Assembly (NCBI GenBank): GCA_965262915.1
Contig: OZ253564.1
Coordinates: forward strand, 1,184,001-1,248,000
Direction of reading: 5' to 3'
DNA: 64,000 nt
Source: Candidatus Spongiisociaceae bacterium
GTDB taxonomy: Bacteria; Actinomycetota; Acidimicrobiia; Spongiisociales; Spongiisociaceae
The position numbers and the translations under genes are program-made. The notes below the pieces were generated by a model, which was not told the DNA's origin, searched no databases, and saw nothing but the letters and a program-made list of their open reading frames with translations. Positions 1,947 through 53,153 of this stretch are shown piece by piece; position 1 is the first letter of the stretch; each line of letters opens with the position of its first letter.

Positions 1947-2654
1947 GTGTTCGAGTCTTACGTACTGCTCAAGACGTTGCACGTCCTGCTCATAGCCACC
2001 TGGTTGGGGATGGACTTCGGAACCTTCATCTCCTACAGGCGAATGCGGGACGCTTCCCTCTCGATCGATACCCGCAAGCAGATGTACCGGATCTTCGCCT
2101 TCATCGACATGGGCCCCCGTTCCTCCCTGGTGCTGATGCTCACCCTCGGTGTGACCCTTACCTACATGGGCGGCTGGGGGTTCGCCGGTTCCGGAGGCCG
2201 GGCCTTCGCCATAGTGACGGCCATCGTCGGGGTCTTGTGGGTGGCGGCAATGTGGCATCAATACTGGGTCCACGAGGCTCCGCCAGGTGAGCCGCGGCCG
2301 GAACTGCATGTGAGGATCCAGAAGGTGTTCCGCCCTTTCGATATATGGCTCAGGGTGGGCCTGGCCGGAGGACTGGCCATCGCCGCCATCGTGTCCCTGG
2401 CCGGTGGGGAAGGACCGATCTACGCGAACTGGCTTGCCTGGAAGCTTATTCTGTTCGCCGGCATCGTGATGTCGGGCGTCGGCATCAGGATTTTCCTGCC
2501 GGCTGTCGTCACGGCGGTCGCCGACATATTCACCAAGGGTTCGACCCCTGAGCGAGAAGCGGCTCTGACGACCGGATCCCGCAAGACCGTCTGGTTCGTG
2601 TATGCGATCTGGGTACTGATCATCGCCATCTCGTGGATCGCGATCGCCGGGTAG
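1947..2654 (+). CDS. Multi-pass membrane protein (DUF2269/CopD-like), paralogue of 32283-32945
   Basis: GGAGG RBS + GTG; LHVLLIATWLGMDFG...FIDMGPR...WLAWKLILF shared with the 32283 gene. Confidence 0.75.
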   Translation: MFESYVLLKTLHVLLIATWLGMDFGTFISYRRMRDASLSIDTRKQMYRIFAFIDMGPRSSLVLMLTLGVTLTYMGGWGFAGSGGRAFAIVTAIVGVLWVAAMWHQYWVHEAPPGEPRPELHVRIQKVFRPFDIWLRVGLAGGLAIAAIVSLAGGEGPIYANWLAWKLILFAGIVMSGVGIRIFLPAVVTAVADIFTKGSTPEREAALTTGSRKTVWFVYAIWVLIIAISWIAIAG

Positions 2655-2657
2655 CCC

Positions 2658-3086
2658 ACGGCGAGCGAGATCAAGGAACGCCTCGCCCGCGTTGTCGGAG
2701 TCTGGGAAGGCACCTACACCTCGGTGACTCCGATCGCCGATGTGGTCGAGCGGTACCAGAGCCGCCAGGAGACCAGGCTCGACGGCGAGGTTTGGCACGA
2801 GCGCATCATCTACCTGCGCGACGGTCGGGAGCCAGAGGTCTACGACTTCGCCGGTAGATTCTACGACGGCATGCTCCTCTTCGAGGACGACGACATCTCG
2901 GGTGACACCTACTTCGTCGGGGATGACATCCTCGTGCTGCCGTACACCTGGAAGTCCCGCCCGAACGAGAAGGTGGTGGAGACCGTGATCCTGGCCACGC
3001 CGTCGCACAAGGCCCGGATCTGGCAGGTCTTCGACCGCGGGGAACTGATCCGGGTGATGATCATCAGCGAGCATCTAGTGTCCTGA
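2658..3086 (+). CDS. Small beta-barrel protein (DUF3598/nitrobindin-like); ACG where ATG is expected; last codons displaced by IS630
   Basis: Frame ACG-ASEIKERLARVVGVWEGTYT...RIWQVFDRGELIRVMIISEH; removing IS630 gives ...EHLADG* overlapping the GTG at 4258. Confidence 0.6.
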   Translation, partial: TASEIKERLARVVGVWEGTYTSVTPIADVVERYQSRQETRLDGEVWHERIIYLRDGREPEVYDFAGRFYDGMLLFEDDDISGDTYFVGDDILVLPYTWKSRPNEKVVETVILATPSHKARIWQVFDRGELIRVMIISEHLVS

Positions 3087-4247
3087 TTCCTTAGTTTCTT
3101 TGCCATATGCTGCTAGAATATGCAGGTCAGTAGCAGTCAGTAGTGGGAGCAGCGTATGGAGAAGCAGCGGGGTCGTAAAGCAGTGGTTATCGAGCTGGAT
3201 GAAGAGGAACGCCAGACGCTCGAGCGGTGGATACGGCGGCGTAGCACCGCACAAGGGTTAGCGATGCGGTCTCGTATCGTGCTGGGAGCGGCCGAAGGCC
3301 GCACCAATGTGGACATCGCAGCGGAGGTGGGCTGCAGCGGGGTTACGGTCTCGAAGTGGCGGAACCGTTTCGCCCGGCGCCGTCTCGACGGCCTCTACGA
3401 CAATCCCCGCCCCGGGCCGCCCCGCCGCATCGACGACGCCAAGGTAGAAGAAGTGGTGGTCAAGACCCTCGAGGAAACACCGAGAGACGCGACGCACTGG
3501 TCGACCCGGTCCATGGCGAGGGCCGTCGGCCTGTCCCAGTCGTCGATCCTAAGAATATGGCGGGCGTTCGGTCTCAAGCCGCACCGGACCGAGCATTTCA
3601 AGATATCTCCCGACCCCCAGTTCGTGGAAAAGGTCCGCGACCTGGCGGGTTTGTACCTGAACCCGCCCGACGCGGCGGTGGTGCTGTGTGTGGACCACAA
3701 ATCCCAGATACAGGCCCTCGACCGCACCGCGCCGATCCTGCCCCTGTTGCCCGGAACCCCCCAGCGGCGCACCCACGACTACCGCCGGTACGGCACCACC
3801 AACCTCCACGCCGCGCTCGACACGGCCACCGGCCGGGTCATCACCTCCATGACACGACGCAACCGCACCCAAGAATTCCAGACGTTCCTAAACCTCATCA
3901 ACCGCGAAGTCCCACCAGAACTCGACGTCCATGTCGTGTTGGACAACGCGTCGCCCCACAAAACAGAGCCCATAGGGCGCTGGCTGCAACGCCATCCACG
4001 GTTCACGTTCCATTTCACACCCACCTACGCGTCGTGGATGAACCTCGTCGAGCGATGGTTCTCCGAACTCACCACCAAACAGATACGCCGAGGCACCCAC
4101 CGATCCGTAGCCGAACTCACCGACGCCATCAACCAATGGACCCAACACTGGAACCAAAACCCCAAACCCTTCATCTGGCACAAAACCGCCGACCAAATCT
4201 TCGACAACCTCACCAACTATCTACAACGAATCCCCGAATCAGGACAC
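3078..4247 (+). mobile_element. IS630-family insertion sequence, copy 1
   Basis: TIR GTGTCCTGATTC...GAATCAGGACAC, duplicated TA within CTAG at both ends; nearly identical to 47269-48438. Confidence 0.95.
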
Positions 4248-4250
4248 TAG
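3156..4250 (+). CDS. IS630 transposase
   Basis: HTH + DDE (CVD, VLDN, LVERWF); HFTPTYASWMN motif. Confidence 0.95.
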   Translation: MEKQRGRKAVVIELDEEERQTLERWIRRRSTAQGLAMRSRIVLGAAEGRTNVDIAAEVGCSGVTVSKWRNRFARRRLDGLYDNPRPGPPRRIDDAKVEEVVVKTLEETPRDATHWSTRSMARAVGLSQSSILRIWRAFGLKPHRTEHFKISPDPQFVEKVRDLAGLYLNPPDAAVVLCVDHKSQIQALDRTAPILPLLPGTPQRRTHDYRRYGTTNLHAALDTATGRVITSMTRRNRTQEFQTFLNLINREVPPELDVHVVLDNASPHKTEPIGRWLQRHPRFTFHFTPTYASWMNLVERWFSELTTKQIRRGTHRSVAELTDAINQWTQHWNQNPKPFIWHKTADQIFDNLTNYLQRIPESGH

Positions 4251-4257
4251 CAGATGG

Positions 4258-4830
4258 GTGACCCGTGGTCCGTTTCTCCAGCACCTGGATGGGTCGGTCC
4301 AACTAGATACCGGCCACCAAACCAAGGTGAGCCTGGTCGACGGATCGGAGAATGGCTCAATGTTTTCCGAGGTGAGGCTGGGAACGATATCGGTAGGGGA
4401 TCTGGCCCGGTCCGAGCGTTTCTATCACGATGCCTTCGGGTACGTCGGCAAAGGGAATGGTGTGCTTCGCGCCGAGGACGACGACGGTCGGGTCGGGGAG
4501 GCCTGGATGATGCCGGCCGGCATGACCGCCGGGTACTCGGTTGTGGGCCCGGCCGAATGCGAGAGTTGCCTGCTCCGCATCGTGGAGTTCGACTCTCCGG
4601 GCGAGCTCATCTGGGGGGATGTGCCGGCCGGCAAGGTCATCGGCCTGTATGCCCTCAACATCCGGCTTCCCGATATCCACACCGGCTGGGAACGGATCGT
4701 GGCCGCCGGCGGCACCGTCAAGTCTCCCCCTACCCATTGGAACCTCAGTGACGGCTCCGCCTGGGACTCCCAGATCTACGACCCGGACGGAGTCTTGATC
4801 GACGCCTGGAGCGTGGAGGGCGAGATCGCC
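4258..4830 (+). pseudogene. VOC/glyoxalase protein, N-terminal half only, truncated by a deletion
   Basis: TISVGDLARSERFYHDAFG, LRIVEFD, YALNIR, YDPDGVLID; paralogous to 13151. Confidence 0.7.
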
Positions 4831-5275
4831 GATCGGTCTGCCGACGTGGGGCGCCGACGGGGTTCGCTCCCGGGCCGGAGACGCCCCTCCTGTGTTCAGG
4901 GGTAACTCGCTCCAAGACCTGGCGGCGATGGCCGGGATCGACCCGGCCGGCCTGCTATCGACCGTTTCCGCCTACAACGCGGCGGTCGACGGTGCTCCTG
5001 ACGAGCTGGGGCGGAAGCACCTGCCGCTGCCCATCGAGAACCCGCCGTTCTACGCGGTCGAGAACCACGCCACGACGTTGCGAACTCCGGGCGGGGTTGC
5101 CGTGGACGACCGGCTCCGGGTTCTCGATGCCGAGGGTCGACCCTTCGGGGGGCTCTATGCTGCGGGCGAGGTTCTGGGCAGCGCGGTGTTCAGCGGCGGC
5201 GGGGCGGCTGCCGGGATGAGCATCACTCCCGCTACGACGTTCGGCCGGTTACTCGGATCGAGCCTGGTCTCCTAG
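4830..5275 (+). pseudogene. C-terminal fragment of an FAD-dependent oxidoreductase (flavocytochrome c/KstD-like)
   Basis: LAAMAGIDPAGL, PPFYAV, TPGGVAVD, GLYAAGE; the FAD-binding N-terminus is missing. Confidence 0.8.
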
Positions 5276-5302
5276 AGGTTCCTCTGATCACAAGGAGTTG
5301 AG

Positions 5303-6151
5303 ATGTCTCGAAACGGCCGCCGTGCCATTGACGCAGACTCGCATGTGGGTCTTGCCCTGGATACCTGGGACCGGTTCCTCGATCCGGGATTGGCGGACCA
5401 TCCTGGCCGCCCGCGGTTCGAGGAGGCCGACGGGATCCGTCCGCGTACCGGGTGATGTCCGACGAGCACTTCTATCTCATCTACGAGGAAGCTGCCCGGC
5501 TCGATGTCCCGCTGTCGATCCACGCCTTCAGCGATCCCCACGTAGAAGGACATACCCACAACTGGCCTAGGAGGGTGGTGTGAAACCCCTTCACGGCCCG
5601 TCGACCGATGACATAATGCCTGTTCAGAGGAAGACGGGCCGTTGCTCCCCACCGTTTTAGACCACCCTCCTAGGGTGGGCTCGATGCTCTGGAGCGACAT
5701 CGTCGGGTTCCCGTTCCAAGGCATGCAGGTGTTCGTCAACCTGGTTCTCGGCGGGGTTTGCGACGTGTTCCCCGATACGAGATTCGGGATCTTCGAGTCG
5801 GGCCTGGGCTGGATGCCGATGATCATCGACCGGATCCACGAACGGCAGGAGAAGTTCGGTGACCTGGTCAGGATGGCCGCTCCCGACATGGAACTCCTCC
5901 CGGAGGAATACATCCAGCGCCAGATATGGATGGGCTTCGAACCCGAGGACCCGTTCCTGCCCGAGTTCATCGAGTGCACAAAGGCCCCCGAACGTACCTT
6001 GCTCTCCATCGACTACCCCCACCTCGACTACGAGCCCGGCCAACTCGGTGGATTCCGCGCTCGTGGTGACGTGTCGGACGAGGACATCAGGCTGGCCGAG
6101 TGGGACAACTCGATCGAGTACTTCAGGTGGGAGGGGACCGCCGCCATCTAG
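5303..6151 (+). pseudogene. Amidohydrolase_2 family gene with internal deletion and MITE insertion
   Basis: AAGGAG RBS, MSRNGRRAIDADSHV; VPLSIH; FESGLGW; SIDYPH; removing the MITE restores HNWPRVGSML. Confidence 0.85.
5571..5669. mobile_element. ~99-bp MITE with CTAG target duplication
   Basis: TIR GAGGGTGGT...ACCACCCTC with CTAG on both sides; near-identical inverted copy at 32150-32247. Confidence 0.85.
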
Positions 6152-6262
6152 CCGCCTGGGTGAGCGCCGAGGAACCCCGCCATTGCCCCGCCGGTCGACG
6201 ACGACGTCATTCCAGCGGACGGGGCCGACCGTTGTTGAAAAACGGGCGTACGATGGAGACCC

Positions 6263-6661
6263 ATGCCCAAGAACCGACGAGACAACCGCCCTTCCGACCC
6301 GTGGCCCACGCTTGAAGACGCCATACGCGAGGCCACCGTCGTGGCCCGTTACGCACGTGCTTTCTACGGGGCCGACCTCAAGGCTGTATGGCTGTACGGA
6401 TCGCGCGCCCGAGGGGACAACAGACCCGACTCGGATCTTGATGTGTTGCTGGTGCGCGACCCACCGAATGGTCTCGATCCTATCCACGTCCCGAGGGAGT
6501 GGGCGGACGAACCCTTCCGGGACATGCTAGAGGAGCACATGGACGGGTACTCGGAGATGTTCACACCGATACAGATCAAATCGGTACAGCCAGACCAACT
6601 GGAAACCTGGGACACCATGTTCTTCCGCAGCGTCCGAGAAGACGGGATACGGATCGTATGA
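6263..6661 (+). CDS. Minimal nucleotidyltransferase (MNT) antitoxin
   Basis: LYGSRARGD...DSDLDVL motif. Confidence 0.88.
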   Translation: MPKNRRDNRPSDPWPTLEDAIREATVVARYARAFYGADLKAVWLYGSRARGDNRPDSDLDVLLVRDPPNGLDPIHVPREWADEPFRDMLEEHMDGYSEMFTPIQIKSVQPDQLETWDTMFFRSVREDGIRIV

Positions 6662-7077
6662 CCTATCTGGATGAAGCGTGGGGCTGGCTGGAGTATTCAG
6701 CCGATATGCTACAGGCTGCCAAAGATAACTTTAGCGTACAACAATACAGCGTGACTGTATCCCTCTCCTATTTCGCAACCTTCTATGCGGCCAAGAGCGT
6801 CATAGCCCTCTCGCGGGAGCGAGATCCCAAGACACACACCGGCGTCATTGGTCGATTCGGTGAGTTGGCCGTTCGGGATTCGGACTTTCCACGCGAGGTC
6901 GCTAGACATCTCTCCCGGCTGTCCACCCTGCGAAACAATACGGATTACGACTTCTCCTACAGAGATACCTGGAAAGCAGACAATACGGCGGAAGAACTTG
7001 AACGAGCTCGAGCCTTCGTAGAGGAAGTACACAACTGGATCAATCGGCACTTCGAGGGCGACGGGCTAGCTGGCTAG
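6658..7077 (+). CDS. HEPN-domain toxin, partner of MNT
   Basis: ATGA overlap; SYFATFYAAKS, KTHTG, LRNNTDY. Confidence 0.85.
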   Translation: MTYLDEAWGWLEYSADMLQAAKDNFSVQQYSVTVSLSYFATFYAAKSVIALSRERDPKTHTGVIGRFGELAVRDSDFPREVARHLSRLSTLRNNTDYDFSYRDTWKADNTAEELERARAFVEEVHNWINRHFEGDGLAG

Positions 7078-7199
7078 TCGTCACCGGCAGATAGCTTTCG
7101 CCATCCAGTCACGGGTACCGGGTGGGCCGCCGACCACGGGCTAATCCCGAGGATCGGCGGCTCTAGGATAGTGGAGGCCCGGGCCGGGCCCGCTAGGCG

Positions 7200-7631
7200 A
7201 AGCTCCACTCCTGCTGGCGGATGTGGTTCACCCGCAGCAGGCCCTGGTCGATGCCCGCATGGTTGATCCGGCTGGACATGTACCTGTTCTGGCCCTGGTA
7301 CAACCACACCGCCGGAGGCGCCAACATCCGGCCGTTGCCCGAGGTACAGGCTCTCAAGCAATGGGCCGACGACCTGCTGGCAAGCGGGCGAAGCTGGCGC
7401 GTTGCGTACCGGGCGGCCTTCGAATACCCCACCAGGGACCGGCTGCCGTGACTGACCCGACCCACCCTGCCGGCCACATCGGCAGTCGATCCGCTCCGGG
7501 TCTATTCCGGGGAGACGGCACGGATCAGCGATGTCATCACGGTGGCCGAATCGGAAGGCTACGTTACGCCGGAAGCCTCCCGCAGAACGGCCGAGCTGTA
7601 CAGGGCCTTCTCCGATCGTCAAGACGGATAG
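7200..7631 (+). pseudogene. C-terminal remnant of a tandem alpha/beta-hydrolase paralogue
   Basis: AWLIRLDMYLFWPWYN...AYRAAFEY.TRDRLP*LTRPTL matches the cap region of the 49580 gene; internal TGA at 7449. Confidence 0.7.
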
Positions 7632-7638
7632 GAGCACG

Positions 7639-8629
7639 ATGTCTGAACCCGGAACCGCTCTCGGAGTCTCCATATGCGGGGTCGAGAACCTGGAGCACGC
7701 GCTGGGGTACTACCGCGACCTGGTCGGCTTGGATGTCGTTGATCGGGAGCCCTGGTCCGGGAAGCAGTTCGAGGATCACTGGCACCTGCCTGCGGGGAGT
7801 TCAGCCCGGACCGCCCTGCTTGGCTTCGGTGACAGCCCCGTGGGTCGGGTGCTGCTGCTCGAGTTCGACGCTTCCCACCGCCTTCGGGTGCGACCGCACA
7901 GCGAGCGGGCCTTCTACGGGCTGTTCAACCTCAACTTCTACTGCTATGACATCCCGGCAGCGGTCGTGGAACTGAAGGAACGTGGGTACAACGTGTGGAG
8001 CGAGCCTCACCTACGACGTCTCCGCCCAGGCCGGCCAGCCCACCGAGGTCCTGAACGACGGACCCGACTGTGTGATCATCAACCTGGTGCAGCCCGCCGG
8101 GGGAGGAGGCACCGCGGTTGGTGAGATGAAGGCCTACCTCGACACGCACGGTGTCACCTCCCGCGGCTTCACCGAGGTGGCGACCTCGTCGCACAGAGTC
8201 AAGGAACGCGAGGCGGCTCTCGCGTTCCATCGAGGGGTGTTGGGCCAGGAGGTGTTCATCGACGCCACCTTGGGGTCGGAGACCAGCAACCAGCTGTGGG
8301 GCCTGCCCGACGAGGCCCGCACCAGGGCAACCTTCATGAGGGACGCCCATCCGTTCGGCAAGGTCGTGTTGAGCCAACCTCTCAACTACCGGCCCCCGGA
8401 CTTCGTCCCCCGAGCGGTGGCCCCCAACATCGGCTACCTGGCGATGGTGTTCCCTGTCTCCGATCTCGCCGCTGCACTGGACGCGGCCGATCTGGAACCC
8501 GATGGAGTCATCAACCCTCCGACCGATCTGATCATCCCAGGAGTCGGGAGCCGGACCGTGGCCGTCATTTGCGCCCCCGGAAGCGGCGCCCGCTACGAAC
8601 TCATGGAGGATGACGTTCCTCGACCCTAG
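7639..8629 (+). pseudogene. Two-domain VOC family protein, frameshift near 8008
   Basis: GVENLEHALGYYRDLVGL, GRVLLLEF, NLNFY in one frame; TYDVS...GPDCVIINLVQ...APNIGYL in the next. Confidence 0.8.
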
Positions 8630-8710
8630 ATGACGTTCCTCGATCCTATAGGTCCGCTCGGTAGTTACCCGGCTAGTTCATGGCTATGCGTATGCGGACC
8701 TACCCCTGGG

Positions 8711-8828
8711 AGGGTGCTGAAAAACATAGGAGCATCCCCGGACAAGGGGGTTCGCTCGGTAGCGCACAACTCTCTTACTAGGTGGTTTGCCACTAGCGAA
8801 CCCCGCAAGGTTCGTTCTTCGCACCCTC
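8711..8828. mobile_element. MITE-like element related to the CTAG family
   Basis: Ends GAGGGTGCTGAAAAAC / GTTCTTCGCACCCTC-CTAG; internal GGGGTTCGCT...AGCGAACCCC inverted repeat. Confidence 0.55.
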
Positions 8829-8853
8829 CTAGATCGCTACATGTACACAGGCT

Positions 8854-9144
8854 CTACGCGACTGTCGACAGACGTTCTACTTCAATGTGATGAGCGTTCC
8901 TTAGAGCCCGGGCGAGGTCGTAGGCTGCCTGGAGTCGGTACCACGTGTGGGCACCTCCACCGAATGCCTTGTCAAGCCGGATCGCCATCTCGGGCGAGAT
9001 GCCCGAACGGCCATTGACCACATCCGATAGTTGTTTACGACTGACACCTAGCTTCTTCGCCGCTTCCGTCACGCTGAGCCCCAGCGGCTCCAAGCAGTCG
9101 TGACGGACGGAGAATCCAGGATGGGGCGGATCTTTCATCGGCAT
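8854..9144 (-). CDS. higA: HigA-family XRE antitoxin
   Basis: PPHPG...[14 protein letters not shown]...ISPEMAIRL...[10 protein letters not shown]. Confidence 0.92.
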
Positions 9145-9158
9145 TGTCGCGTCCTCCT

Positions 9159-9437
9159 TCAGTGGTAGTCGACCAAGTCCACTTCAGTCGCATGTCCCCC
9201 CTCGAACCGAAACACGATGCGCCAACCGCCGGACACGCTTACGGCCCAGTACCCGGCAAGGTCCCCTTTCAGCGGATGGAGGTGGAAGCCCGGCAGATCC
9301 ATGCTCCTGACAGCGGTTGCCTCATCGAGACGCGCCAAGATCCGCTCGATCTTGGCAACGTACGCTGGCGGTATGCGACGCCGATCCCCCTTTTCGTAGA
9401 GAAGCTTCAGGCCCTTGTGGCGGAATCGGATGATCAC
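9159..9437 (-). CDS. higB: HigB/RelE-family toxin
   Basis: [11 protein letters not shown]...LHPLKGD...[15 protein letters not shown]...VDYH. Confidence 0.92.
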
Positions 9438-9843
9438 TCAGGTAGTGTAACCTGTCACCTCTCAGGTGACAATACTGTCGTTGTGACTCAGCCTGTCTAC
9501 CGGAAGGGTTGGCGTGTGGCCTGTGGCGTGGATCCGCCCCAGCACAGCCCACACGTTCCGTATGGCCAACGGATCGCCATCTCGGTCGGGTAGCCTCACA
9601 TCTGAACCCTGTATCCGAATTCCGTCCCGGCGCCTGCCCACCAGAGCATGGTCTTAGGGAGTCACGGACGGGGGCGGCTTTCGTTTCACATCAGGGCAGC
9701 TTCCCGGGCACCAGAGACATAGGGGGAATACTGGGGGCTCCCCGATCTGCCCCTTCAGTCGGGCAGAGGCGCTCAGCGAACTGTTGGTGGAGCTGGCAGC
9801 AGGCAGGGCAACGCGCAGGTACGTTTCCTCTCGCGGTTGATGC

Positions 9844-10848
9844 TCAGACCGGAGGTGGTGGAGGTGTTAGCGGGGTGTAATCGGCCGCCAGCAGCGCCTT
9901 TCCGGACCGGCTCCGTAGAGCGGCCGCCACGCCCACCAGGGTTATGGTGCCCCCGCCGACATGGGTAAGGGTCACGGCTTCGCCTAGGAAGAACCACGCC
10001 ATGGCCGCTGCCAGGAAGGGGAGCGAAAGGTTCATCAGCGGCGGTACGTTGGCCGGGACCCAGCGGAGGCTCCAGGTAAGGAGGATGGCACCGATGCCGC
10101 CCGGCAGGACCACCACGCCAAGTACCTGGAGCATGTCCGGGCCGGTCACATCCCAGATGTCCTGACGGGTGGCGAGACAGAACAATGAAACGAACAGAGC
10201 GCTGACGAGGAGCATGCCCATCGTCAACGGAATGGTCTGCATGGTTCCCCGGGCCAGCTTCACGGTCACGAACTGCAGCGACCAGGAAACGACGGACAGC
10301 GCCCCCAGGGCGATGCCGAGTGGGCTTCCGTCCGGCCCCGTCGAGCCGCCGAGAATCACCACCGAGGACCCGAGGATCGCCACCAAGGTCCACAGACGGA
10401 AACGCATTCCGGGACGCTCCCCGAACAGAGGGATCGCCCACAGAGCGATGAAGACCGGATTGAGCATCGTCAGCAACGACACGTCGGCCACAGAGGTGAA
10501 CTTGACCGCAGTCATGAACATCGTGGTCGAGGCGGCGTGGAACAGGCCGGCCAGAGCAGGAATCTTCCACTCGCGGCCTCGCGGTAGGGCGAGGTCGAAG
10601 CGCCCGGCGAGCGCAACCGCGGCGAAGGTAACCACGACCCCGATCCAGGACCTCCAGAACGAGAAAACCGGGCCGGTTGTGGAAGACGCCTGCACGAAGA
10701 CCGGAGCGGTGCTGAAGGCCACCACCGATGTGCCGATCAGGATGAGAGGCCTGCGAGAGCCGAGGTTCCGCAGCTCCTTGATGGCCGCCGGGGGATTCAA
10801 CAAGCTTCTCGTACGAGCGCTGCTGGACGGGTGATCGGTCTCAGCCAC
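9844..10848 (-). CDS. DMT/EamA transporter
   Basis: Two EamA-like repeats (FWRSWIG, LNPVF, LFGER; FLGEAVT). Confidence 0.88.
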   Translation of the reverse strand: MAETDHPSSSARTRSLLNPPAAIKELRNLGSRRPLILIGTSVVAFSTAPVFVQASSTTGPVFSFWRSWIGVVVTFAAVALAGRFDLALPRGREWKIPALAGLFHAASTTMFMTAVKFTSVADVSLLTMLNPVFIALWAIPLFGERPGMRFRLWTLVAILGSSVVILGGSTGPDGSPLGIALGALSVVSWSLQFVTVKLARGTMQTIPLTMGMLLVSALFVSLFCLATRQDIWDVTGPDMLQVLGVVVLPGGIGAILLTWSLRWVPANVPPLMNLSLPFLAAAMAWFFLGEAVTLTHVGGGTITLVGVAAALRSRSGKALLAADYTPLTPPPPPV

Positions 10849-11019
10849 CGAGGCTCACGATTATCCAGGTTGGCGTCACTCGTTCCTTCGCCGTTCCCTA
10901 GCCGTCCGGCCGTGAGTGCCAGGTGGTTCATCAGGTGCCGGGACCAAGGCAAGGCATGGGTATACGAGTAATCCAGCATCTGTTCCCGTGTTGGAGCACA
11001 CCGGTCCCGGATCGCCCGC

Positions 11020-11975: not shown

Positions 11976-12005
11976 CCCGGACCTTCCCAGAGAGCGCGAC
12001 CTATC

Positions 12006-13134: not shown

Positions 13135-13150
13135 GGCACAAGGAGGGACG

Positions 13151-43309: not shown

Positions 43310-43392
43310 GTACGTTGAGGGAGGCGGAACACAGCGAGGGGCGTCGATGGCTGCCAGGACACGGCGAATCGTTTTTCAGACAGACCACTAGC
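43310..43392 (+). promoter_or_regulatory. Conserved upstream cassette/operator before the LLM-VOC operon
   Basis: GGCGTCGATGGCTGCCAGGACACGG...GTTTTTCAGACAGACCACTAGCC, matching the reverse complement of 1716-1799. Confidence 0.65.
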
Positions 43393-43402
43393 CTGGCGTG
43401 AC

Positions 43403-44416: not shown

Positions 44417-44845
44417 AGGAGAGACCGTGGTAGGCGCGATGGAGTACGTCACGCTGGGTGTCTCGGATATGGATGAGTCGGTTCGCCTGTTTCGTGACGT
44501 TATGGAGTTCGATGTGGAAACGGAGTACACGCCCTGAATCGCCCCGGGTTTCCCGGAGACTCGATTAGTTGGGAGATAATGGGGTATGGGACGACCGATT
44601 ATGTATTCACCGGAGGTGCGGGAGCGTGCTGTTCGGATGGTGTCAGAGCATCGGGGGGAGCACCGTTGGGAGTGGGCGGCGATCTGTTCGATCGCGGAGA
44701 AGTTCGGGTGTGCGTCTGAGACGTTGCGCAAGTGGGTGCGGCCGGCTGAGCGGGACAAGGGCGTGCGCTCTGGGTTGAGTTCGGATCAGTTGACCGAACT
44801 GGGGGAGTTGCGGCGGGAGGTCCGGGAGTTGCGCCGGGCGAATGA

Positions 44846-46977
<2,132 letters not shown>

Positions 46978-47268
46978 CAATACCTGTCCATCCGCTACAC
47001 CAACCGCCTCACCGAAGCCGGCATCTCACCGTCGGTCGGATCAGTCGGAGACTCCTACGACAACGCCCTCGCCGAATCAGTCATCGGCCTCTACAAGACA
47101 GAACTCATCCGCCCGAAGGGACCATGGCGCGACCGGGACCAAGTCGAGTACGCCACCCTCGAGTACGTGGACTGGTTCAACCACCGAAGACTCCTCGAAC
47201 CAATAGGACACATCCCACCAGCAGAAAAGGAGGCCAACTACCATCGTCAACAAACGCGAGTCCAGCTA

Positions 47269-48438
47269 GTGTCCTGATTCCTTAGTTTCTTTGCCATATG
47301 CTGCTAGAATATGCAGGTCAGTAGCAGTCAGTAGTGGGAGCAGCGTATGGAGAAGCAGCGGAGTCGTAAAGCAGTGGTTATCGAGCTGGATGAAGAGGAA
47401 CGCCAGACGCTCGAGCGGTGGATACGGCGGCGTAGCACCGCACAAGGGTTAGCGATGCGGTCTCGTATCGTGCTGGGAGCGGCCGAAGGCCGCACCAATG
47501 TGGACATCGCAGCGGAGGTGGGCTGCAGCGGGGTTACGGTCTCGAAGTGGCGGAACCGTTTCGCCCGGCGCCGTCTCGACGGCCTCTACGACAATCCCCG
47601 CCCCGGGCCGCCCCGCCGCATCGACGACGCCAAGGTAGAAGAAGTGGTGGTCAAGACCCTCGAGGAAACACCGAGAGACGCGACGCACTGGTCGACCCGG
47701 TCCATGGCGAGGGCCGTCGGCCTGTCCCAGTCGTCGATCCTAAGAATATGGCGGGCGTTCGGTCTCAAGCCGCACCGGACCGAGCATTTCAAGATATCTC
47801 CCGACCCCCAGTTCGTGGAAAAGGTCCGCGACCTGGCGGGTTTGTACCTGAACCCGCCCGACGCGGCGGTGGTGCTGTGTGTGGACCACAAATCCCAGAT
47901 ACAGGCCCTCGACCGCACCGCGCCGATCCTGCCCCTGTTGCCCGGAACCCCCCAGCGGCGCACCCACGACTACCGCCGGTACGGCACCACCAACCTCCAC
48001 GCCGCGCTCGACACGGCCACCGGCCGGGTCATCACCTCCATGACACGACGCAACCGCACCCACAAATTCCAGACGTTCCTAAACCTCATCAACCGCGAAG
48101 TCCCACCAGAACTCGACGTCCATGTCGTGTTGGACAACGCGTCGCCCCACAAAACCGAACCCATAGGGCGCTGGCTGCAACGCCATCCACGGTTCACGTT
48201 CCATTTCACACCCACCTACGCGTCGTGGATGAACCTCGTCGAGCGATGGTTCTCCGAACTCACCACCAAACAGATACGCCGAGGCACCCACCGATCCGTA
48301 GCCGAACTCACCGACGCCATCAACCAATGGACCCAACACTGGAACCAAAACCCCAAACCCTTCATCTGGCACAAAACCGCCGACCAAATCTTCGACAACC
48401 TCACCAACTATCTACAACGAATCCCCGAATCAGGACAC
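47269..48438 (+). mobile_element. IS630-family insertion sequence, copy 2
   Basis: Same TIRs and TA duplication as copy 1; removal restores the IS3 orfB end VQLAGLK*. Confidence 0.95.
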
Positions 48439-48441
48439 TAG
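47347..48441 (+). CDS. IS630 transposase
   Basis: Differs from 3156-4250 at three residues. Confidence 0.95.
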   Translation: MEKQRSRKAVVIELDEEERQTLERWIRRRSTAQGLAMRSRIVLGAAEGRTNVDIAAEVGCSGVTVSKWRNRFARRRLDGLYDNPRPGPPRRIDDAKVEEVVVKTLEETPRDATHWSTRSMARAVGLSQSSILRIWRAFGLKPHRTEHFKISPDPQFVEKVRDLAGLYLNPPDAAVVLCVDHKSQIQALDRTAPILPLLPGTPQRRTHDYRRYGTTNLHAALDTATGRVITSMTRRNRTHKFQTFLNLINREVPPELDVHVVLDNASPHKTEPIGRWLQRHPRFTFHFTPTYASWMNLVERWFSELTTKQIRRGTHRSVAELTDAINQWTQHWNQNPKPFIWHKTADQIFDNLTNYLQRIPESGH

Positions 48442-49579
48442 CTGGACTCAAATAAAACACCCTCCGGCAAACCCGGTACGGTTCACCCTCGCCCGCACTC
48501 CGTGCGCTGTGGGGCCTCGACGACGTTGAGGACGCCCGAGTGGTTGAGCTGTCCTGTGCCGGGTATCCGGTGGGTCGGCTCCGTCTTCTCGCCACCACCC
48601 CTCCCCGCACCATCCGGGTGCGTGACGACCACGGTGGTCCCGATACCGCCACCGATGTGGGGGTCAAGGCGATCGACTTCTACGTGCGGCCGCCCATCGC
48701 CCACTGGATCGAGACGCTGGAGGGCGCCGGATGCCGGGCGCGTTCGGAACCGATCCGTTGGGAGATCGGGACGGTGGAGAGCGAGGAGATCAATATCTCG
48801 GGTCCTGACGGCTACCCGATGCTCCTGATGGTGGCCTGGCGCCACCCGGAGGCCTTCCGCCGTGAATGGGATGGTGTGAATCCGTTCAGCGAAGTTGCGA
48901 CGACCTCGGTGGTGTGCGGGGATCTGGACGACAGCCGCTACTTCTACAGCGAGGTACTGGGACTCACGAAGTTCACCGACGATGAGGTCGCCGACGAGTA
49001 CCGGGAACTCGCCGACACCCTGACCGGTGTCCCGTCCGGAACGAGGGTCCGCCTGACCCTCTACGGTGCGGAGGGCGAACCGAGCGGGAAGCTCCTCCTC
49101 GTGCACTTCTACGAGGCGTCGGTGCGAAGGCTGGACGGCAGGATACGCCCCGACCACCTGGGCGTGGCGATGTTCACCCATACGACCGCGGATATCGAGG
49201 GAATCCATCGTCGAGTGAAGGCCTCGGGGAACTCGGTCCTTGCTGCGCCGACCGAGGTCCCCGAATACGAAGGACGGGTGATGGTCGCCGCCGGACCCAA
49301 CGACGAGCTGTTCGAAATCACCGAAGCGGTTCGCTGAAGAACCGTTTGACAACCCGGAAACGAGACCCATAGGTTTCTCGGCACGCGGGCCTCCCGGTTC
49401 CCGGCCGGCCCCCGACCTGTAAGTGAGGTATGGATCCGTCCCCAAATCGAGTTGATCCACGAGGTTGACTACATCCTCCGCCCGGCGGAGCTTCCCAGCA
49501 TGAAGGGTCCGGTGATCATCGGGATTCAGGGTCGGTTCGAGACGACCGATTCCTCGGCCGGCCAGGGCAGGTAGGCCGT

Positions 49580-51277
49580 ATGGACATCAAACGACGCTAC
49601 GTCTACGCCGGAGCCAGGAGGGTTCACTATCGGAGGGCCGGGACAGGTCCGCCCCTAGTGATGCTGCACGCCTCGCCCGGTAGTTCCTACGTTCTGGAGC
49701 CTCTGATGCGGCTCCTGGCCGAGTCGCGCACGGTCATCGCCATCGACACCCCCGGGTACGGGGAGTCGGAAGGTCTCGACATCGAAGAACCCGAGATCAG
49801 CGCCTTCGGGGCGGTTCTGGTCGATACCCTTGACGCCCTCGATCTCGATCGCTTCGATCTCTACGGAACCCATACCGGCTCGAAGATCGCGGTCGAGTTC
49901 ACCGGTAACAACCCGGCGAGGGTGCGGCGCCTGGTGCTGGACGGGATCGGTGCGTACACGCCCGAGGAACGGGCCGACCTGCTGGCCAACTACACCATCG
50001 ACCTCTCGCCTGAATGGGACGGTACCCATCTGATCCGAGCCTGGACGATGCGGCGCGACATGCACATGTTCTGGCCGTGGTACAGCCGCGAAGGTGACCA
50101 CCGCATGGCGATGGACATCCCGTCCACCGACGAGATGCACGACCACTTCATCGACTTCCTGCGTGCCATTCCGGATTACGGCAAGGCTTACCGGGCCTCC
50201 TTCCGCTACAACGTCTCGGAGGGGATGGGCCGGCTCACCGTACCTACCCTCATGATCGCCCTTCCCTCCGACCCCCTCTTCCAGTACCTGGCAGGAGGTA
50301 CCGACCTGGGAGATGACGTAACGGTCGAGACGGGCGCCACTGATCTGGAGAGGCTCGCAGACCTCACGGCGCGGTTCCTGGGAGAGGGCGAGCGACTTCC
50401 CGATACCGCTCCCGAGACGGCGCCCGTGCCCGTGGCCGGTTGCCTGCGGCGCCGCTTCGTCGATGTCTCGATCGGCTCCCTTCACGTCCGTTGGAGTGGC
50501 GACGAGGGCCGTCCCCTCGTCGTGCTGCACGCCTCGCCTACCTCCGCCAAGAACCTCGATCCCCTCACCAGGCGCTTCGCTGCGACGCGTCCGGTGATCG
50601 CCTTCGACAACCCCGGGAACGGGGACTCCTCACCAATACCGGGCGAGCCGGAGATCGCCGACCTGGCCGAGGTAATCGTCGAGGGACTCGACGCGCTGAG
50701 CGTGGGGGAGTTCGACCTGTACGGTTCGCACACCGGTGCTCATATCGGCATCGAAGTAGCCATCAGCCAGGGTCGGCGGGTATCTGCTCTGATCCTCGAC
50801 GGGATCATTCCCTACGACGAGGCTCAGGCGGTCGAGTGGTTGGCTTCCTACCCTCCCCCGATGGTTCCCGACCGCCACGGGGGCCATCTCATCTGGGCGT
50901 GGAACTTCATGAGGGACCAGGTGGTGTTCTGGCCGTGGTTCTCCCAGAAGGCGGACAGCGTCCGGCATGGTGCTTCGATCCCGGACGCCGAAGTGCTTCA
51001 TGACCGGGTCGTTGAGATGCTGAAAGGCGGGCGCACCTATCACCACCAGTACGCGGCGGCCTTCCGGTACCGGACCCAGGACCGGCTTCCGCTTGTCGAG
51101 GTACCGACTCTCGTGTGTGCCGGACCCACAGACCCGCTACTCGAGCACCTCGTCGCGGTTCCAGACATCCTCCCCGAGGCCGAGGTACTGGCCCATCCCG
51201 GTCTGGCGACCGAATCCGACGCCGATCACACCGTTGGCGAGTTCGCCCGGTTCCTCTCCCGGGCCGGTGGTACTTGA
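49580..51277 (+). CDS. Tandem (two-domain) alpha/beta-hydrolase-fold protein
   Basis: Both domains have LHASP, D.PG.G.S, LYG(T/S)HTG and FWPW. Confidence 0.9.
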   Translation: MDIKRRYVYAGARRVHYRRAGTGPPLVMLHASPGSSYVLEPLMRLLAESRTVIAIDTPGYGESEGLDIEEPEISAFGAVLVDTLDALDLDRFDLYGTHTGSKIAVEFTGNNPARVRRLVLDGIGAYTPEERADLLANYTIDLSPEWDGTHLIRAWTMRRDMHMFWPWYSREGDHRMAMDIPSTDEMHDHFIDFLRAIPDYGKAYRASFRYNVSEGMGRLTVPTLMIALPSDPLFQYLAGGTDLGDDVTVETGATDLERLADLTARFLGEGERLPDTAPETAPVPVAGCLRRRFVDVSIGSLHVRWSGDEGRPLVVLHASPTSAKNLDPLTRRFAATRPVIAFDNPGNGDSSPIPGEPEIADLAEVIVEGLDALSVGEFDLYGSHTGAHIGIEVAISQGRRVSALILDGIIPYDEAQAVEWLASYPPPMVPDRHGGHLIWAWNFMRDQVVFWPWFSQKADSVRHGASIPDAEVLHDRVVEMLKGGRTYHHQYAAAFRYRTQDRLPLVEVPTLVCAGPTDPLLEHLVAVPDILPEAEVLAHPGLATESDADHTVGEFARFLSRAGGT

Positions 51278-51279
51278 GC

Positions 51280-52236
51280 ATGGCTCGAAGCGGCGGCAGC
51301 CGGCTGGTCGCGGCCATGATCGGCACCGCGGAGCCGGGTCGGCACATCGACCTGTTCCGTGACGTGCTCGGCATGTAGGTGGTCTCCGAACAGATCCTGT
51401 CGGGTACCGAAGCGGGCTTGCTACCGGGAGTGGACGTGCGCTCGGCACGGGTCACGGTGCTCACCACCCCCCCCCCCCCCCCCAGCTACGCCGGGGTGGC
51501 CCTTGTCGAGTTCGATCCCGTCTCGGAGGTGGTGATCCGCGAGGGCATGCAGGGCATCGACATCGATGCCCTCAAGGTCATCGATGTCGTGACCTCCGAG
51601 GCCGAGGCCGGCTTCGTCCGCTTCGAGAGTGCCGGCTTTGTGGTGTCCGACGTGCGGTCCAGTTACGAGATCGAGGACGGATCCGTCACCGAGACCCATG
51701 CATACGGTCCCGAGGGTGTGGTGATCGGCATCCTGGACTTCCACACCATCGAAGCTGCCCGGTTCGTGGAGATCACCGGTCGGTTGTTCTCGGAGGCGAT
51801 GAGCGTGTCGGTTCCGGTGGACGACCTCGAACCCGTTGTCGAGTGGTACGGCCGGGTGCTCGGTTTCGATGTGGTACACCGATACGGTTTCGACGCGGAG
51901 AGCTTCAAGGACCTGGTCGGCACCGACTCCGCGGCCTGGAACGTCCGGGGAACCAACATCGGGCATAGCACCCAGGAGTTCTATTTCGGGGTCATCGACT
52001 ACGGAACGGGTGACACCCGACGGCGGTCCCTCGGGGACAGAGCCAGGCCTCCCAATCGGGGGATCGCCGGTGCGCTATGCACCGTCGACGACCTCGACGC
52101 GGTGATAACGGCCGCGGCTCCGCACGAGATGGTCACCGAACCGGTTGAGGTTGCGCTCGGGCCATGGGGCCGCACCCCGGCCGCCACCCTGGTAGCTCCT
52201 CACGGCATCATCCATACGGTGGTCGAGACCACGTGA
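51280..52236 (+). pseudogene. Two-domain VOC protein with in-frame TAG (51376) and a C17 tract
   Basis: ...LFRDVLGM*VVSEQ...; ALVEF, YGPEG, PPNRG. Confidence 0.75.
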
Positions 52237-53153
52237 GCCGGGGTTTTTCCCACGCGATCGTCGGAGTGGCCGACCTAGACGAAGCCGCCCGGCTATGGGT
52301 CGATACCTTCGGGCTCTCCGCGACCGCTCGCCGCGACGGTGCCGACGAAGCGCTGGAGAGCCTTTGGGGTCTCGCTCCGGGTAGTGTCAGTCGCCAGGCG
52401 CTGGTCGGACTGCCGGGTGAGGTGACGGGCCGGTTGCATCTGGTTGAGTTCACCGATCCGGCACCGGCGGTGCGTTCCGGCGCGCGGTCGTTCGATCTCT
52501 GCCCCAAGAACCTCGACGTGAGGCTCACCGGCATGCAGGAACGCTACGACGAACTGGTTTCCGCCGGATGGGTCATGGGCTCGACGCCGGTAAGGATGCC
52601 GGTGGACACGATGGAGATCTACGAGGTCCAGCTCAAGGGACCGGACGTGACCAACCTGTCGCTGGTGGAGGTGGTGGGTGACGATCTCCCGTACACGCCG
52701 CAAGGCTACGTGGCGGTGACCCAGGTGGTCGGTACCAATCCCGACAACCCCGCCGAGCGGGCCTTCTTCGAGGGGGTGTTCGAGTTGGAGCACCTCGACT
52801 ATCACCTGTTCGAGGGTCCCGAGGTGGAGCGGATGGTCGGGCTTCCGGTCGGCGCCAAGCTCGACATGCACATTCTGGGCGACCCCTGCAACCAGTTGGG
52901 CCGGATAGAGCTGGTCCAGTATGCGGGAGCGGACGGAACCGACCTCTACCCGCGGGCCCTGCCACCGGCCTGCGGTTTTCTCGGCGTGGGATTCGACACC
53001 GACGACCTCGACTCGCTCGTGGCCCGGGCCGGATCAGGAGGGCACCCCGTAGAGGATCTGGGAACCGCCGACACCATAACCGGAGGCGGACCCAGCGCGG
53101 GGGTCACCAGCCCGGCCGGATGGCGCATCGAAGTCCGCGAAGCTAGTGGCTAG
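52233..53153 (+). CDS. Two-domain VOC family protein (intact)
   Basis: HAIVGVADLDEA, GRLHLVEF, KGPD, GRIELVQY, SPAGWRIEV. Confidence 0.88.
   Translation: MSRGFSHAIVGVADLDEAARLWVDTFGLSATARRDGADEALESLWGLAPGSVSRQALVGLPGEVTGRLHLVEFTDPAPAVRSGARSFDLCPKNLDVRLTGMQERYDELVSAGWVMGSTPVRMPVDTMEIYEVQLKGPDVTNLSLVEVVGDDLPYTPQGYVAVTQVVGTNPDNPAERAFFEGVFELEHLDYHLFEGPEVERMVGLPVGAKLDMHILGDPCNQLGRIELVQYAGADGTDLYPRALPPACGFLGVGFDTDDLDSLVARAGSGGHPVEDLGTADTITGGGPSAGVTSPAGWRIEVREASG

Follow-up and report, generated by a model that had tools for sequence, protein, structure and literature searches.

What has gathered a large set of VOC-family genes into one stretch of a bacterial genome, and do these genes form a single pathway? 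The question is raised by a window of 64,000 nucleotides (the whole stretch of DNA that was analyzed; contig OZ253564.1, positions 1,184,001 to 1,248,000) from a Candidatus Spongiisociaceae bacterium of the Acidimicrobiia, the genome of which is one contig of 5.06 Mb with ~64% G+C. A sequence-only reading of this window had proposed that positions 1947-53153 code for one undescribed pathway that degrades tetrapyrroles (heme or bilins) and that is built around eight VOC paralogues. We consider it probable, though by no means certain, that the window is instead the central, eroded part of an accessory catabolic island for an organic compound in this sponge-associated bacterium. The island consists of multiplied modules, and the cluster from which these modules derive is also conserved elsewhere in the Actinomycetota.

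Open reading frames (ORFs) were chosen by third-position G+C and then scanned with Pfam and NCBIfam. These scans revealed that the span 1947-53153 is a mosaic and not a run of consecutive operons. The catabolic-type genes in the window code for VOC, LLM, alpha/beta-hydrolase, PrpD, isochorismatase, polysaccharide-deacetylase-like, ABM, MBL, MFS and EamA proteins, and interleaved with them are a Shango anti-phage system, a DNA methylase, toxin-antitoxin modules, insertion sequence (IS) elements and a 9.2-kb insertion. Because the set is interrupted by defense and mobile DNA, and because most of the pathway genes are broken, the proposal that one pathway extends across this span is not supported.

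To place these genes we searched 41 related genomes with the protein encoded by the intact VOC gene at 13151 (called 13151 below) and compared the window with 120 kb of a genome from the same genus, G002. Matches to 13151 were found in this genome (8) and in the same-genus genomes G001, G002 and G007 (10-13 each, clustered), which makes four of the eight genomes of the genus; the four other same-genus genomes gave no match, and the 33 other genomes of the family or order gave a single weak one (E 7e-4). The island is thus an accessory one that is limited to some species of one genus. Specifically, window positions 1-53134 are syntenic with positions 8202-81704 of the G002 region; nucleotide identity is 66-89%, and the deletions and insertions that separate the two are defined. 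The G002 island is open-framed, extends over ~105 kb and is far larger than the copy in the window. Its module families include 13 VOC matches, seven LLM genes of F420 type, three fused double and three single alpha/beta-hydrolases, a TcuA/KstD-like FAD_binding_2 flavoprotein, SDRs and MmgE/PrpD genes. Amide-hydrolyzing families are represented by four isochorismatases, by PuuE- and dihydropyrimidinase-type enzymes and by Amidohydro_1 and Amidohydro_2 genes. The island also has coenzyme A (CoA)-transferase III, an acyl-CoA ligase and HMGL/ICL-type lyases (one HMG-CoA-lyase-like and one methylisocitrate-lyase-like protein). Nitroreductases, Cupin_7/DUF4437 proteins, two aldehyde:ferredoxin oxidoreductases (AFOR) and a CoxLMS-like Mo-hydroxylase are also present, as are Opp-type ABC, MFS and EamA transporters.

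When 71 ORFs of the G002 island were compared with this genome at a minimum of 60% identity, 26 had their best match in the window, 22 had it elsewhere in the genome and 23 had none, and many further island ORFs are covered only in part. Most of the 22 are found either a short way before the window or at 1.304-1.326 Mb, where they form a second block. This second block, where the island resumes at genome position ~1,303,800, indicates that the island has been divided by ~67 kb of inserted DNA, the start of which (~53.3 kb of the window) is marked by an rve fragment and a tyrosine integrase.

The sequence-only reading had also named gene-neighborhood analysis as a check, and co-clustering was indeed found for a core set of genes. 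A one-genome-per-species scan for orthologues of the VOC proteins yielded 32 loci, 29 of them outside the genus. The latter are found in Streptosporangiales and other actinomycetes, namely Nonomuraea, Microtetraspora, Sphaerimonospora, Microbispora, Streptosporangium, Thermomonospora, Actinocorallia, Dactylosporangium, Micromonosporaceae and Nocardioides, as well as in Steroidobacteraceae and in metagenome-assembled genomes of Dehalococcoidia and Chloroflexota. Neighbors at these 29 distant loci, 24 of which are at least 15 kb long, were counted by tblastn with the 71 island proteins (E<=1e-8, at least half of the query covered). FAD_binding_2 was the most frequent (17/29), followed by the double alpha/beta-hydrolase (15), SDR (14), PrpD (11), CoA-transferase III and a 237-aa protein without a family name (10 each), the DUF3598 barrel and the DUF2269-like membrane protein (8 each), LLM (7), acyl-CoA ligase (5), Amidohydro_1 (4) and isochorismatase (2), while ABM, PuuE-like and AFOR genes were found at none. 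Two or more VOC genes occur at 15 of these loci and three or more at 8. A Pfam scan of 136 ORFs from eight of the 29 loci added SnoaL_3, Cupin_7/DUF4437, IclR and GntR/FCD regulators, MaoC/mesaconyl-CoA-hydratase-like proteins, HpcH/HpaI lyase, CN_hydrolase, PF04199 cyclase and Opp-type or Peripla_BP_6 binding proteins. The Dehalococcoidia locus has no shared neighbors.

The core that recurs in soil and marine Actinomycetota thus consists of two to three VOC genes, the flavoprotein, the double hydrolase, an SDR, the DUF3598 barrel, the DUF2269-like protein and a PrpD/CoA-transferase/MaoC/lyase set. Its recurrence around VOC orthologues at 29 distant loci indicates that a real, uncharacterized catabolic cluster exists, and we hold the conservation of this cluster with high confidence; judged by its enzyme families, the core looks catabolic. 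To call it an undescribed catabolic system was fair, given that none of the island enzymes tested reached an NCBIfam equivalog cut-off. A literature search yielded neither an account of the cluster nor any work on the metabolism of this lineage, although its silence is only a thin basis for taking the cluster to be undescribed. The VOC subfamily and this particular cluster appear to be uncharacterized, while the enzyme superfamilies and paralogue-rich catabolic islands as such are already known.

One part of the neighborhood looks like a separate conserved lower-pathway unit. Specifically, a block of PrpD, CoA-transferase III and LLM genes recurs beside the VOC core in five distant actinomycete loci, and in the three of these five that were scanned with Pfam it is accompanied by MaoC/mesaconyl-CoA-hydratase-like and GntR genes. 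With its CoA-transferase III, MaoC hydratase, HpcH/HMGL lyase and PrpD beside the VOC core, both in distant loci and in G002, the cluster resembles by analogy the lower routes of itaconate, mesaconate and methylcitrate type. We know of no prior description of a PrpD-CoA-transferase-LLM-MaoC block as such.

Against this background the condition of the VOC genes in the window is informative. VOC sequence is present at all eight places for which two-domain VOC genes had been reported, by a Pfam Glyoxalase match or by paralogue similarity, but only two of the genes are intact, namely those at 13151-14074 (+; two-domain, 308 aa, Pfam Glyoxalase 52 bits) and 52233-53150 (+; two-domain, 306 aa, recognized by Pfam, paralogue similarity and alignment to G002). 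The VOC loci are clustered. A tblastn search with nine window queries (E<1e-5) gave 32 high-scoring segment pairs in the genome, every one of them within the window, and 7 of the 28 PF00903 matches in the genome fall in this 1.3% of its length. The paralogues are mutually 26-48% identical, which indicates that they are old duplicates. Some 60 kb past the downstream end of the window there is one more VOC remnant, which belongs to a different type of paralogue.

The other six VOC loci are each damaged in a manner that alignment to G002 makes plain. The remnant at 4360-4836 (+), which had been read as a gene starting at 4258, retains only the N-terminal domain (residues 1-159 of 313 of the G002 orthologue), and a 1.45-kb deletion (G002 12521-13967) fuses it to the last 149 residues of an FAD_binding_2 oxidoreductase. 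This fragment (residues 324-472 of 473) and pieces of an Amidohydro_2 gene, three in number and in two frames, make up the segment 4823-6148 (+; Pfam, NCBIfam and G002 alignment). Frameshifts disable the VOC pseudogenes at 7639-8626 (+; a 2-nt deletion near 8005 that shifts the frame between ORFs 7531-8121 and 7982-8626) and at 11023-11975 (-; a 1-nt deletion near 11313, seen as tblastn segments in two frames and in the nucleotide alignment). The remnant at 33126-33665 (-) ends after residues 1-180 of 329 at a deletion of 15.9 kb (G002 58949-74824) that also took AFOR, PrpD, amidohydrolase, lyase, nitroreductase, LLM and SDR genes. The same deletion merged the VOC remnant into one ORF with the gene downstream of it, which codes for the DUF2269/CopD-like membrane protein (32286-33128, -; 88% identity to a G002 orthologue that matches PF10027 at E 9e-5). 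The gene at 44427-49334 (+; Pfam, paralogue similarity, G002 alignment) is interrupted by a nested IS block at 44535-48485 (3.95 kb) and resumes at 48486-49334. Finally, the pseudogene at 51280-52233 (+) has a TAG at 51376-51378 where G002 codes for Asp.

Damage of the same kind extends to the other catabolic genes. Two LLM oxidoreductases had been reported, one of which is intact (43403-44413, +; Pfam 150 bits) while the other is an F420/LLM-class pseudogene with a 1-nt insertion near 12311 (12009-13188, -; Pfam, NCBIfam, G002 alignment). Likewise, the three alpha/beta-hydrolase genes or remnants that had been listed resolve into one intact fused double enzyme of 565 aa (49580-51274, +; two Abhydrolase stretches in Pfam, 85% identity to G002) and remnants at 7257-7619 and 18251-19339. 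The latter (residues 5-367 of 580) lies with a PrpD remnant (residues 18-136 of 443) in 17769-19339 (-; G002 alignment). The GVWEGTY beta-barrel gene (2658-3083, +; DUF3598_N-like, with a G002 orthologue that matches PF12204 at E 9e-8) has GCG in place of the GTG start of G002, has lost its GGAGG ribosome-binding site and has had its last codons replaced by IS630.

Those lesions between 4300 and 13300 that contigs from four other studies cover show no indel there relative to the window. Among the listed sequencing runs, 19 of 24 (from nine studies) contain the stretch 4300-13300 at a word share of at least 0.68, and we checked its lesions in Logan contigs of four runs from four studies. No insertions or deletions relative to the window were reported over 4300-13300 in these contigs, and contigs without gaps were present in all four runs for 4662-5594 (the deletion junctions), 7708-8452 (the 2-nt deletion) and 11897-13300 (the 1-nt insertion). 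Note that the site at 11313 is spanned by no listed contig, such that depth and the empty indel table alone speak for it. We conclude with strong confidence that the island is eroded in this species, where the complete pathway has probably ceased to work. The erosion takes the form of insertions of IS630, IS3 and IS30, deletions on the kilobase scale, frameshifts, one nonsense codon and the loss of a start codon.

As for the chemistry that the complete island may perform, we propose a tentative scheme, and the odds run somewhat against its being right in this form. The substrate would be imported by Opp-type, MFS or EamA systems. Esterase/hydrolase, dehydrogenase and F420-dependent steps would then prepare a cyclic carboxylated or N-heterocyclic compound that VOC enzymes would cleave or isomerize. 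The resulting branched di- or tricarboxylates would pass through a PrpD-type dehydratase/decarboxylase, CoA-transferase, MaoC hydratase and lyase into central metabolism, and the many paralogues would between them handle several related substrates. Ring cleavage by the VOC enzymes and the sequence of the reactions are our assumption from general knowledge of these families. With respect to the F420-dependent steps, the genome can make this cofactor, as judged by a CofH match at 497 bits, which is above cut-off; the best NCBIfam F420 LLM score of the intact LLM protein is below its cut-off (105.5 versus 213.65 bits, TIGR03841).

The VOC proteins were also analyzed by structure. Their membership in the superfamily is clear: the VOC loci of the window score 26.7-52.3 bits with PF00903 against a gathering cut-off of 20.6, and the AlphaFold2 model of 13151 (pLDDT 95.2, pTM 0.93) has four modules and matches VOC structures with a Foldseek probability of 1.0. 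The structures nearest to it are the monomeric two-domain glyoxalase I (GloI) of maize, at a template modeling (TM) score of 0.66, and then GLOD4, PcpA and Bacillus MhqO-like proteins. The 61 homologues of 13151 are named just "VOC family protein" or "catechol 2,3-dioxygenase-like", one homologue (P0020) matched "VOC family" clusters only in the ESM Atlas, and neither 13151 nor 52233 had a sequence match in the PDB under E 0.4. A profile search gave short N-terminal or partial VOC matches only, those to homoprotocatechuate dioxygenase being confined to ~27 N-terminal residues. Conserved positions in the C-terminal domain are Gln166, Glu227, Ser252, Glu300 and Glu303, of which E227, E300 and E303 are its only near-invariant acidic residues. 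In the profile alignment to maize GloI, His91 and Asp144 pair with a His and a Glu of that enzyme, respectively, the residue where GloI has its first-strand His is hydrophobic in 13151, and His91 is invariant in orthologues and replaced in paralogues (52233 and VOC_d of G002). As far as alignment can tell, the conserved residues form no recognizable 2-His-1-carboxylate site and no full glyoxalase site. We also considered that 13151 is a type I extradiol dioxygenase (BphC/HsaC/C23O) and rejected this: the first-strand His of the C-terminal domain is Arg in 13151 and is not conserved, with ligand positions judged by alignment and not by superposition, and the whole-chain TM score to C23O and BphC is a poor 0.28-0.32.

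Other explanations of the island differ in what they take the substrate to be. One is that it serves catabolism of N-heterocycles or cyclic amides (pyrimidine-, hydantoin-, allantoin- or nicotinate-like), with amidohydrolases at the center and VOC and LLM enzymes opening the ring. Two of the enzymes in question are encoded by the intact operon 28738-32130 (+), which codes for a PrpD-family protein (28738-30129), an isochorismatase-family amidohydrolase (30294-30941), a PuuE-like polysaccharide-deacetylase-family hydrolase (30923-31819) and an MhuD-type ABM heme-degrading monooxygenase (31819-32130). By NCBIfam similarities below cut-off, the isochorismatase is most like RutB and biuret amidohydrolase, the deacetylase is most like the allantoinase PuuE, the Amidohydro_1 protein of G002 is most like allantoinase, dihydropyrimidinase and hydantoin-propionate amidohydrolase, and the nitroreductases and CoxLMS-like Mo-hydroxylase also fit. 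CN_hydrolase and PF04199 cyclase genes at distant loci point the same way, as does the persistence of the isochorismatase-deacetylase pair: the deacetylase family has at least 1012 homologues, and 80 metagenomic deacetylase loci contain an isochorismatase in 36 cases, an SDR in 23, PrpD in 12 and ABM in none. All of the scores are, however, far under the curated cut-offs, and the amide-hydrolases are rare at the VOC loci (isochorismatase at two of 29, Amidohydro_1 at four, PuuE-like at none). This rarity makes the amide-hydrolase modules and the VOC core look like separate units that were united in this genus. Isochorismatase and deacetylase form an independent module that, together with PrpD, is common in marine bacteria and is joined to the VOC cluster in this genus. 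A PuuE-like protein was found in 5 of 201 sampled Acidimicrobiia genomes (this one included) at E<=1e-20, the others being only 28-34% identical, so that no close orthologue is present in that sample. We regard an N-heterocycle as the target of the entire island as unlikely.

A distinctly unlikely reading, in our view, is that the island degrades alicyclic, steroid or terpenoid rings by the logic of KstD, HsaC and HsaD, in which a cyclic ketone would be desaturated by a flavoprotein and its ring opened by a VOC dioxygenase, after which an alpha/beta-hydrolase of meta-cleavage type would split the product ahead of CoA-dependent steps. The resemblance to meta-cleavage pathways for aromatics and steroids (BphC/HsaC, BphD/HsaD, KstD) is real at the level of families, with VOC-fold, alpha/beta-hydrolase, FAD_binding_2, SDR and acyl-CoA ligase proteins in both and IclR-type regulators at distant loci of the present cluster. 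Partial similarities go further: the FAD_binding_2 protein is partly like 3-ketosteroid-1-dehydrogenases and 4-oxocyclohexanecarboxylate desaturases, the hydrolases like HsaD and BphD, the SDR like trans-4-hydroxycyclohexanecarboxylate dehydrogenase, and the acyl-CoA ligase like FadD3 and steroid-24-oyl-CoA synthetase. VOC and FAD_binding_2 genes are also adjacent, and apparently coupled, in G002 and in many distant loci. Yet all of these matches are far under cut-off, the best matches of the flavoprotein are flavocytochrome c and TcuA, and Pfam scans of the G002 island and eight distant loci revealed no Rieske oxygenase, HsaAB-type hydroxylase or other ring-hydroxylating oxygenase. The fused double form of the hydrolase, the domain arrangement and conserved residues of the VOC proteins and their fold, which is far nearer to two-domain glyoxalase I than to BphC or C23O, also set the cluster apart.

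It is very unlikely that the island is one for detoxification or resistance, in which VOC proteins of bleomycin, fosfomycin or mitomycin type would bind or inactivate sponge or microbial metabolites with the aid of MFS and EamA exporters. Weak Ble-like_N and FosA-like N-terminal matches and the DHA2-type efflux MFS and EamA genes that adjoin VOC genes are in its favor. Nevertheless, the conserved CoA-transferase, hydratase, lyase, acyl-CoA ligase and uptake ABC systems fit catabolism, and simple sequestration would not call for multi-enzyme operons.

There remains the tetrapyrrole reading. In it MhuD would open heme to mycobilin, and the PuuE-like deacetylase/deformylase, isochorismatase-type amidase, PrpD, VOC enzymes and hydrolases would take this linear tetrapyrrole to maleimide- and tricarboxylate-type pieces. 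The ABM protein at 31819-32130 is by its sequence a genuine MhuD orthologue. It scores 70.5 bits with Pfam ABM, it matches the M. tuberculosis MhuD structures 4nl5, 3hx9 and 6ple in phmmer (E 4e-26 to 6e-27), and its Asn7, Trp66 and His75 align with those of the M. tuberculosis enzyme, while it falls short of the NCBIfam HmuQ model (46.9 versus 130 bits). These three residues are called essential in MhuD, and the fate of mycobilin is given as unknown, in passages of one preprint (bioRxiv 10.1101/731950). The gene is present in single copy and overlaps the deacetylase gene by 4 nt both here and in G002, and imidase-, amidase- and PrpD-type enzymes would suit maleimide-derived acids. Within the genus, MhuD is restricted to the four island-bearing genomes.

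Nearly every comparison outside the genus separates MhuD from the island. ABM genes are absent from all 29 VOC-centered loci with flanks of up to 10 kb and from the 80 deacetylase loci. Conversely, PuuE-like, isochorismatase or PrpD neighbors are absent from the 1.5-kb flanks of all 27 MhuD loci analyzed (a set that leaves out two loci from unpublished genomes), where we found a nitroreductase at one locus and weak hydrolase matches at two. In the sister genus 7 of 8 genomes carry MhuD elsewhere, and none of these seven loci has an island neighbor. Unlike a multi-gene pathway, the MhuD/IsdG system is here represented by one gene, the neighbors of which do not accompany MhuD in the other lineages sampled. 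MhuD orthologues are also common single-copy genes, present in 87 of 401 sampled Actinomycetota genomes (a tally that takes in unpublished genomes G247, G452 and G307). An apparent deacetylase-ABM fusion, P0080, which would have been Rosetta-stone evidence, was rejected as a frameshift product, the C-terminal part of which, the deacetylase, is out of frame. As to the proposed co-occurrence of VOC and barrel genes with heme or bilin genes, no heme/bilin Pfam family was found in the eight scanned distant loci.

The barrel at 2658-3083 had been thought to resemble heme-binding proteins. Nitrobindin-type barrels have a conserved proximal His. Among seven aligned homologues, none of the invariant residues (L, G, W, G, Y, S, Y, F, G, E, R, W and E) is a His, and DUF3598_N is the sole Pfam match of the family, for the G002 and Thermomonospora copies. 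A nitrobindin-type assignment is therefore not supported.

A multi-gene tetrapyrrole system is thus not supported by co-occurrence, MhuD is an ordinary heme-iron gene that is an incidental island member in this genus, and its recruitment with a PuuE-like deformylase/deacetylase, isochorismatase-type amidase and PrpD to carry heme past mycobilin to small carboxylic acids, which if true would be the first pathway for the fate of the IsdG/MhuD product, is hardly probable at all.

Several observations weigh against the reading that we prefer, an eroded catabolic island, or against parts of it. The island of G002 is intact only in the sense of having open frames. In the window the PrpD-isochorismatase-deacetylase-MhuD operon, the LLM gene at 43403, the double hydrolase and two VOC genes are still intact, and by way of these intact operons part of the function may persist. 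The VOC subfamily is without a recognizable full metal triad, which makes ring cleavage a guess, and the failure of any island enzyme tested to reach an equivalog cut-off means that no substrate can be named. Finally, within the genus all four genomes that bear the island have MhuD and all four that do not bear it lack the gene, which indicates some linkage of MhuD to the island, although the sister genus carries MhuD elsewhere.

Turning to the rest of the window, most of the other non-VOC genes that had been listed are present, but the FAD oxidoreductase and the amidohydrolase exist as fragments only. Intact genes code for a DHA2-like MFS transporter (193-1740, -; Pfam MFS_1 150 bits, 83% identity to residues 1-489 of 493 of the G002 orthologue), an EamA transporter (9847-10848, -; Pfam EamA, 85% identity to G002) and an MBL-fold hydrolase (16849-17703, -; NCBIfam/Pfam, G002 alignment). 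Both reported membrane proteins are confirmed; the second of these, at 1947-2651 (+), is a paralogue of the DUF2269-like protein at 32286-33128, has zero Pfam matches, is 91% identical to its G002 orthologue and has homologues at 7 of the 29 distant VOC loci. The AhpD-like gene at 14104-14646 (+) probably codes for a selenoprotein: the CMD match (46.9 bits) runs across an in-frame TGA, the motif C-A-F-U is of the C-x-x-U type, and a tRNA-Sec gene (anticodon tca) is located at genome position 4,818,894. The putative ferredoxin is a small ORF near 33025 (-) with a ferredoxin-like Cys motif. No tRNA gene was found in the window.

Two observations concern the PrpD operon. A PrpD N-domain fragment lies directly upstream of the intact PrpD gene (window 27860-28798, G002 13016-13825), and its presence in both genomes indicates that it is older than their split. 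Between the PrpD and isochorismatase genes is a tandem repeat of the 7-nt unit GGCACCT (~23 copies, 30138-30298), absent from G002, that lengthens the isochorismatase ORF at its 5' end and that could be a phase-variable or slippage-prone tract.

Several operons had been said to share one upstream motif. The motif does exist, and it is very probably a miniature inverted-repeat transposable element (MITE) of 165 nt with terminal inverted repeats, recognized by inverted-repeat matches and nhmmer, with a full-length copy at 1710-1888 and partial copies at 13092-13142 and 43299-43395. A profile from twelve copies gave 166 nhmmer matches genome-wide, 101 of them at least 140 nt long, and blastn found no copy in the orthologous G002 island. 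We therefore rejected an operator function, and as a MITE the motif is uninformative on co-regulation. Two copies are often found one behind the other, as at genome positions 567186 and 567352. A second short repeat is present as inverted copies at 5563-5657 and 32161-32255 that are 98% identical; in four metagenomic runs its contig depth is ~965-1500 relative to ~15-30 in the flanks, which indicates that it is very highly repeated in those samples.

The IS elements in the window belong to families that are active and numerous in this genome, which has 13 near-full copies of IS630 (mostly 98-100% identical), 16 of IS30 and 13 of IS3. IS630 copy 1 occupies 3067-4251 (+; DDE_3 transposase at 3156-4247, Pfam DDE_3 and HTH domains) and copy 2, at 99.3% identity to it, 47256-48442. 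Copy 2 is part of the nested block that interrupts the VOC gene at 44427, along with an IS3-family element, which has an ALIL frameshift pseudoknot at 44864-44980 (Rfam RF01497), and an IS30-like element inside it. IS3 elements with an internal IS30 recur elsewhere in the genome at 83-89% identity, for example near 1.493, 3.229, 2.808 and 0.246 Mb, and the pair may move as a unit or IS30 may target IS3.

Four toxin-antitoxin modules (HigB-like, MNT-like, RHH-PIN and a MazF fragment) are present in the window. The HigB-like toxin (9162-9437, -; Pfam HigB-like_toxin 62 bits) is in a segment that has no nucleotide match to the G002 island (synteny gap 8632-9846), and the RHH antitoxin and PIN toxin are at 27332-27969 (+; Pfam). 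The MNT-like nucleotidyltransferase module and a neighboring ORF (6263-7074, +; Pfam NTP_transf_2, PADLOC PDC-S09) lie in a 1.5-kb segment, 5664-7193, that is skipped by a joint from 5663 to 7194 in all four metagenomic runs (depth ~7-10 versus ~15-27), and the population seems to be polymorphic for this segment. Other defense genes code for a type II N6/N4 DNA methyltransferase (15719-16690, -; Pfam N6_N4_Mtase 145 bits, PADLOC MTase_II 291 bits) and the Shango system (21339-27683, -). The SngC helicase, SngB ATPase and SngA TerB-N protein of the latter score 879, 602 and 257 bits with PADLOC and are adjacent on one strand. As a Shango system it is complete, and it has no relation to the proposed pathway; it is also syntenic within the G002 island, where SngA is duplicated.

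The 9.2-kb insertion relative to G002 (34160-43300) contains the MazF-like fragment, several ORFs without a family and, at 38877-40022, a gene for an alpha/beta-hydrolase that resembles haloalkane dehalogenases (219.5 bits, where the cut-off is 466). Two repeats are also part of this insertion, a direct one of 137 nt (36942 and 40850) and a tandem one with an 18-nt unit (42261-42385). The mobile and defense DNA that follows the island (53375-64000) includes the rve fragment, the tyrosine integrase (55060-56328), a TM2 protein, a PDC-M48B MBL protein, a HigA-like/PD-Lambda-2_B-like protein and ISL3 and DnaB fragments, and its G+C falls to 58-62%. The integrase, the PDC-M48B and HigA-like proteins and the ISL3 and DnaB fragments indicate that an integrated element parts the two halves of the island.

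Among described systems, the closest parallel in kind is in SAR202 Chloroflexota, for which paralogue-rich expansions of catabolic enzymes are proposed to act on recalcitrant organic matter (mBio 2017, PMC5395668; mBio 2020, PMC6946804). There too, many deeply branching paralogues of LLM/F420-type and other catabolic enzymes are present in a marine bacterium, where they are proposed to oxidize related compounds. The island described here differs in that it belongs to an Acidimicrobiia bacterium, its paralogues are packed into one accessory island that is common to only some congeners, and the copy in the window is decaying. The central family also differs, being here the two-domain VOC proteins; neither glyoxalase nor isochorismatase is named in the main text of PMC6946804.

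For the family, these results define a VOC-based cluster that spans soil actinomycetes to sponge symbionts and that carries a TcuA/KstD-like flavoprotein and a fused double hydrolase. Since several of its carriers are named strains with public genomes (Thermomonospora echinospora DSM 43163 and Nocardioides gansuensis WSJ-1, for instance), it should be possible to approach the substrate experimentally. For the organism, the window records how a sponge symbiont is losing a ~100-kb metabolic island as IS elements, deletions and point lesions accumulate. Those lesions that were examined are found again in material from several studies. The locus can serve as a case of genome erosion in a bacterium that lives in association with a host.

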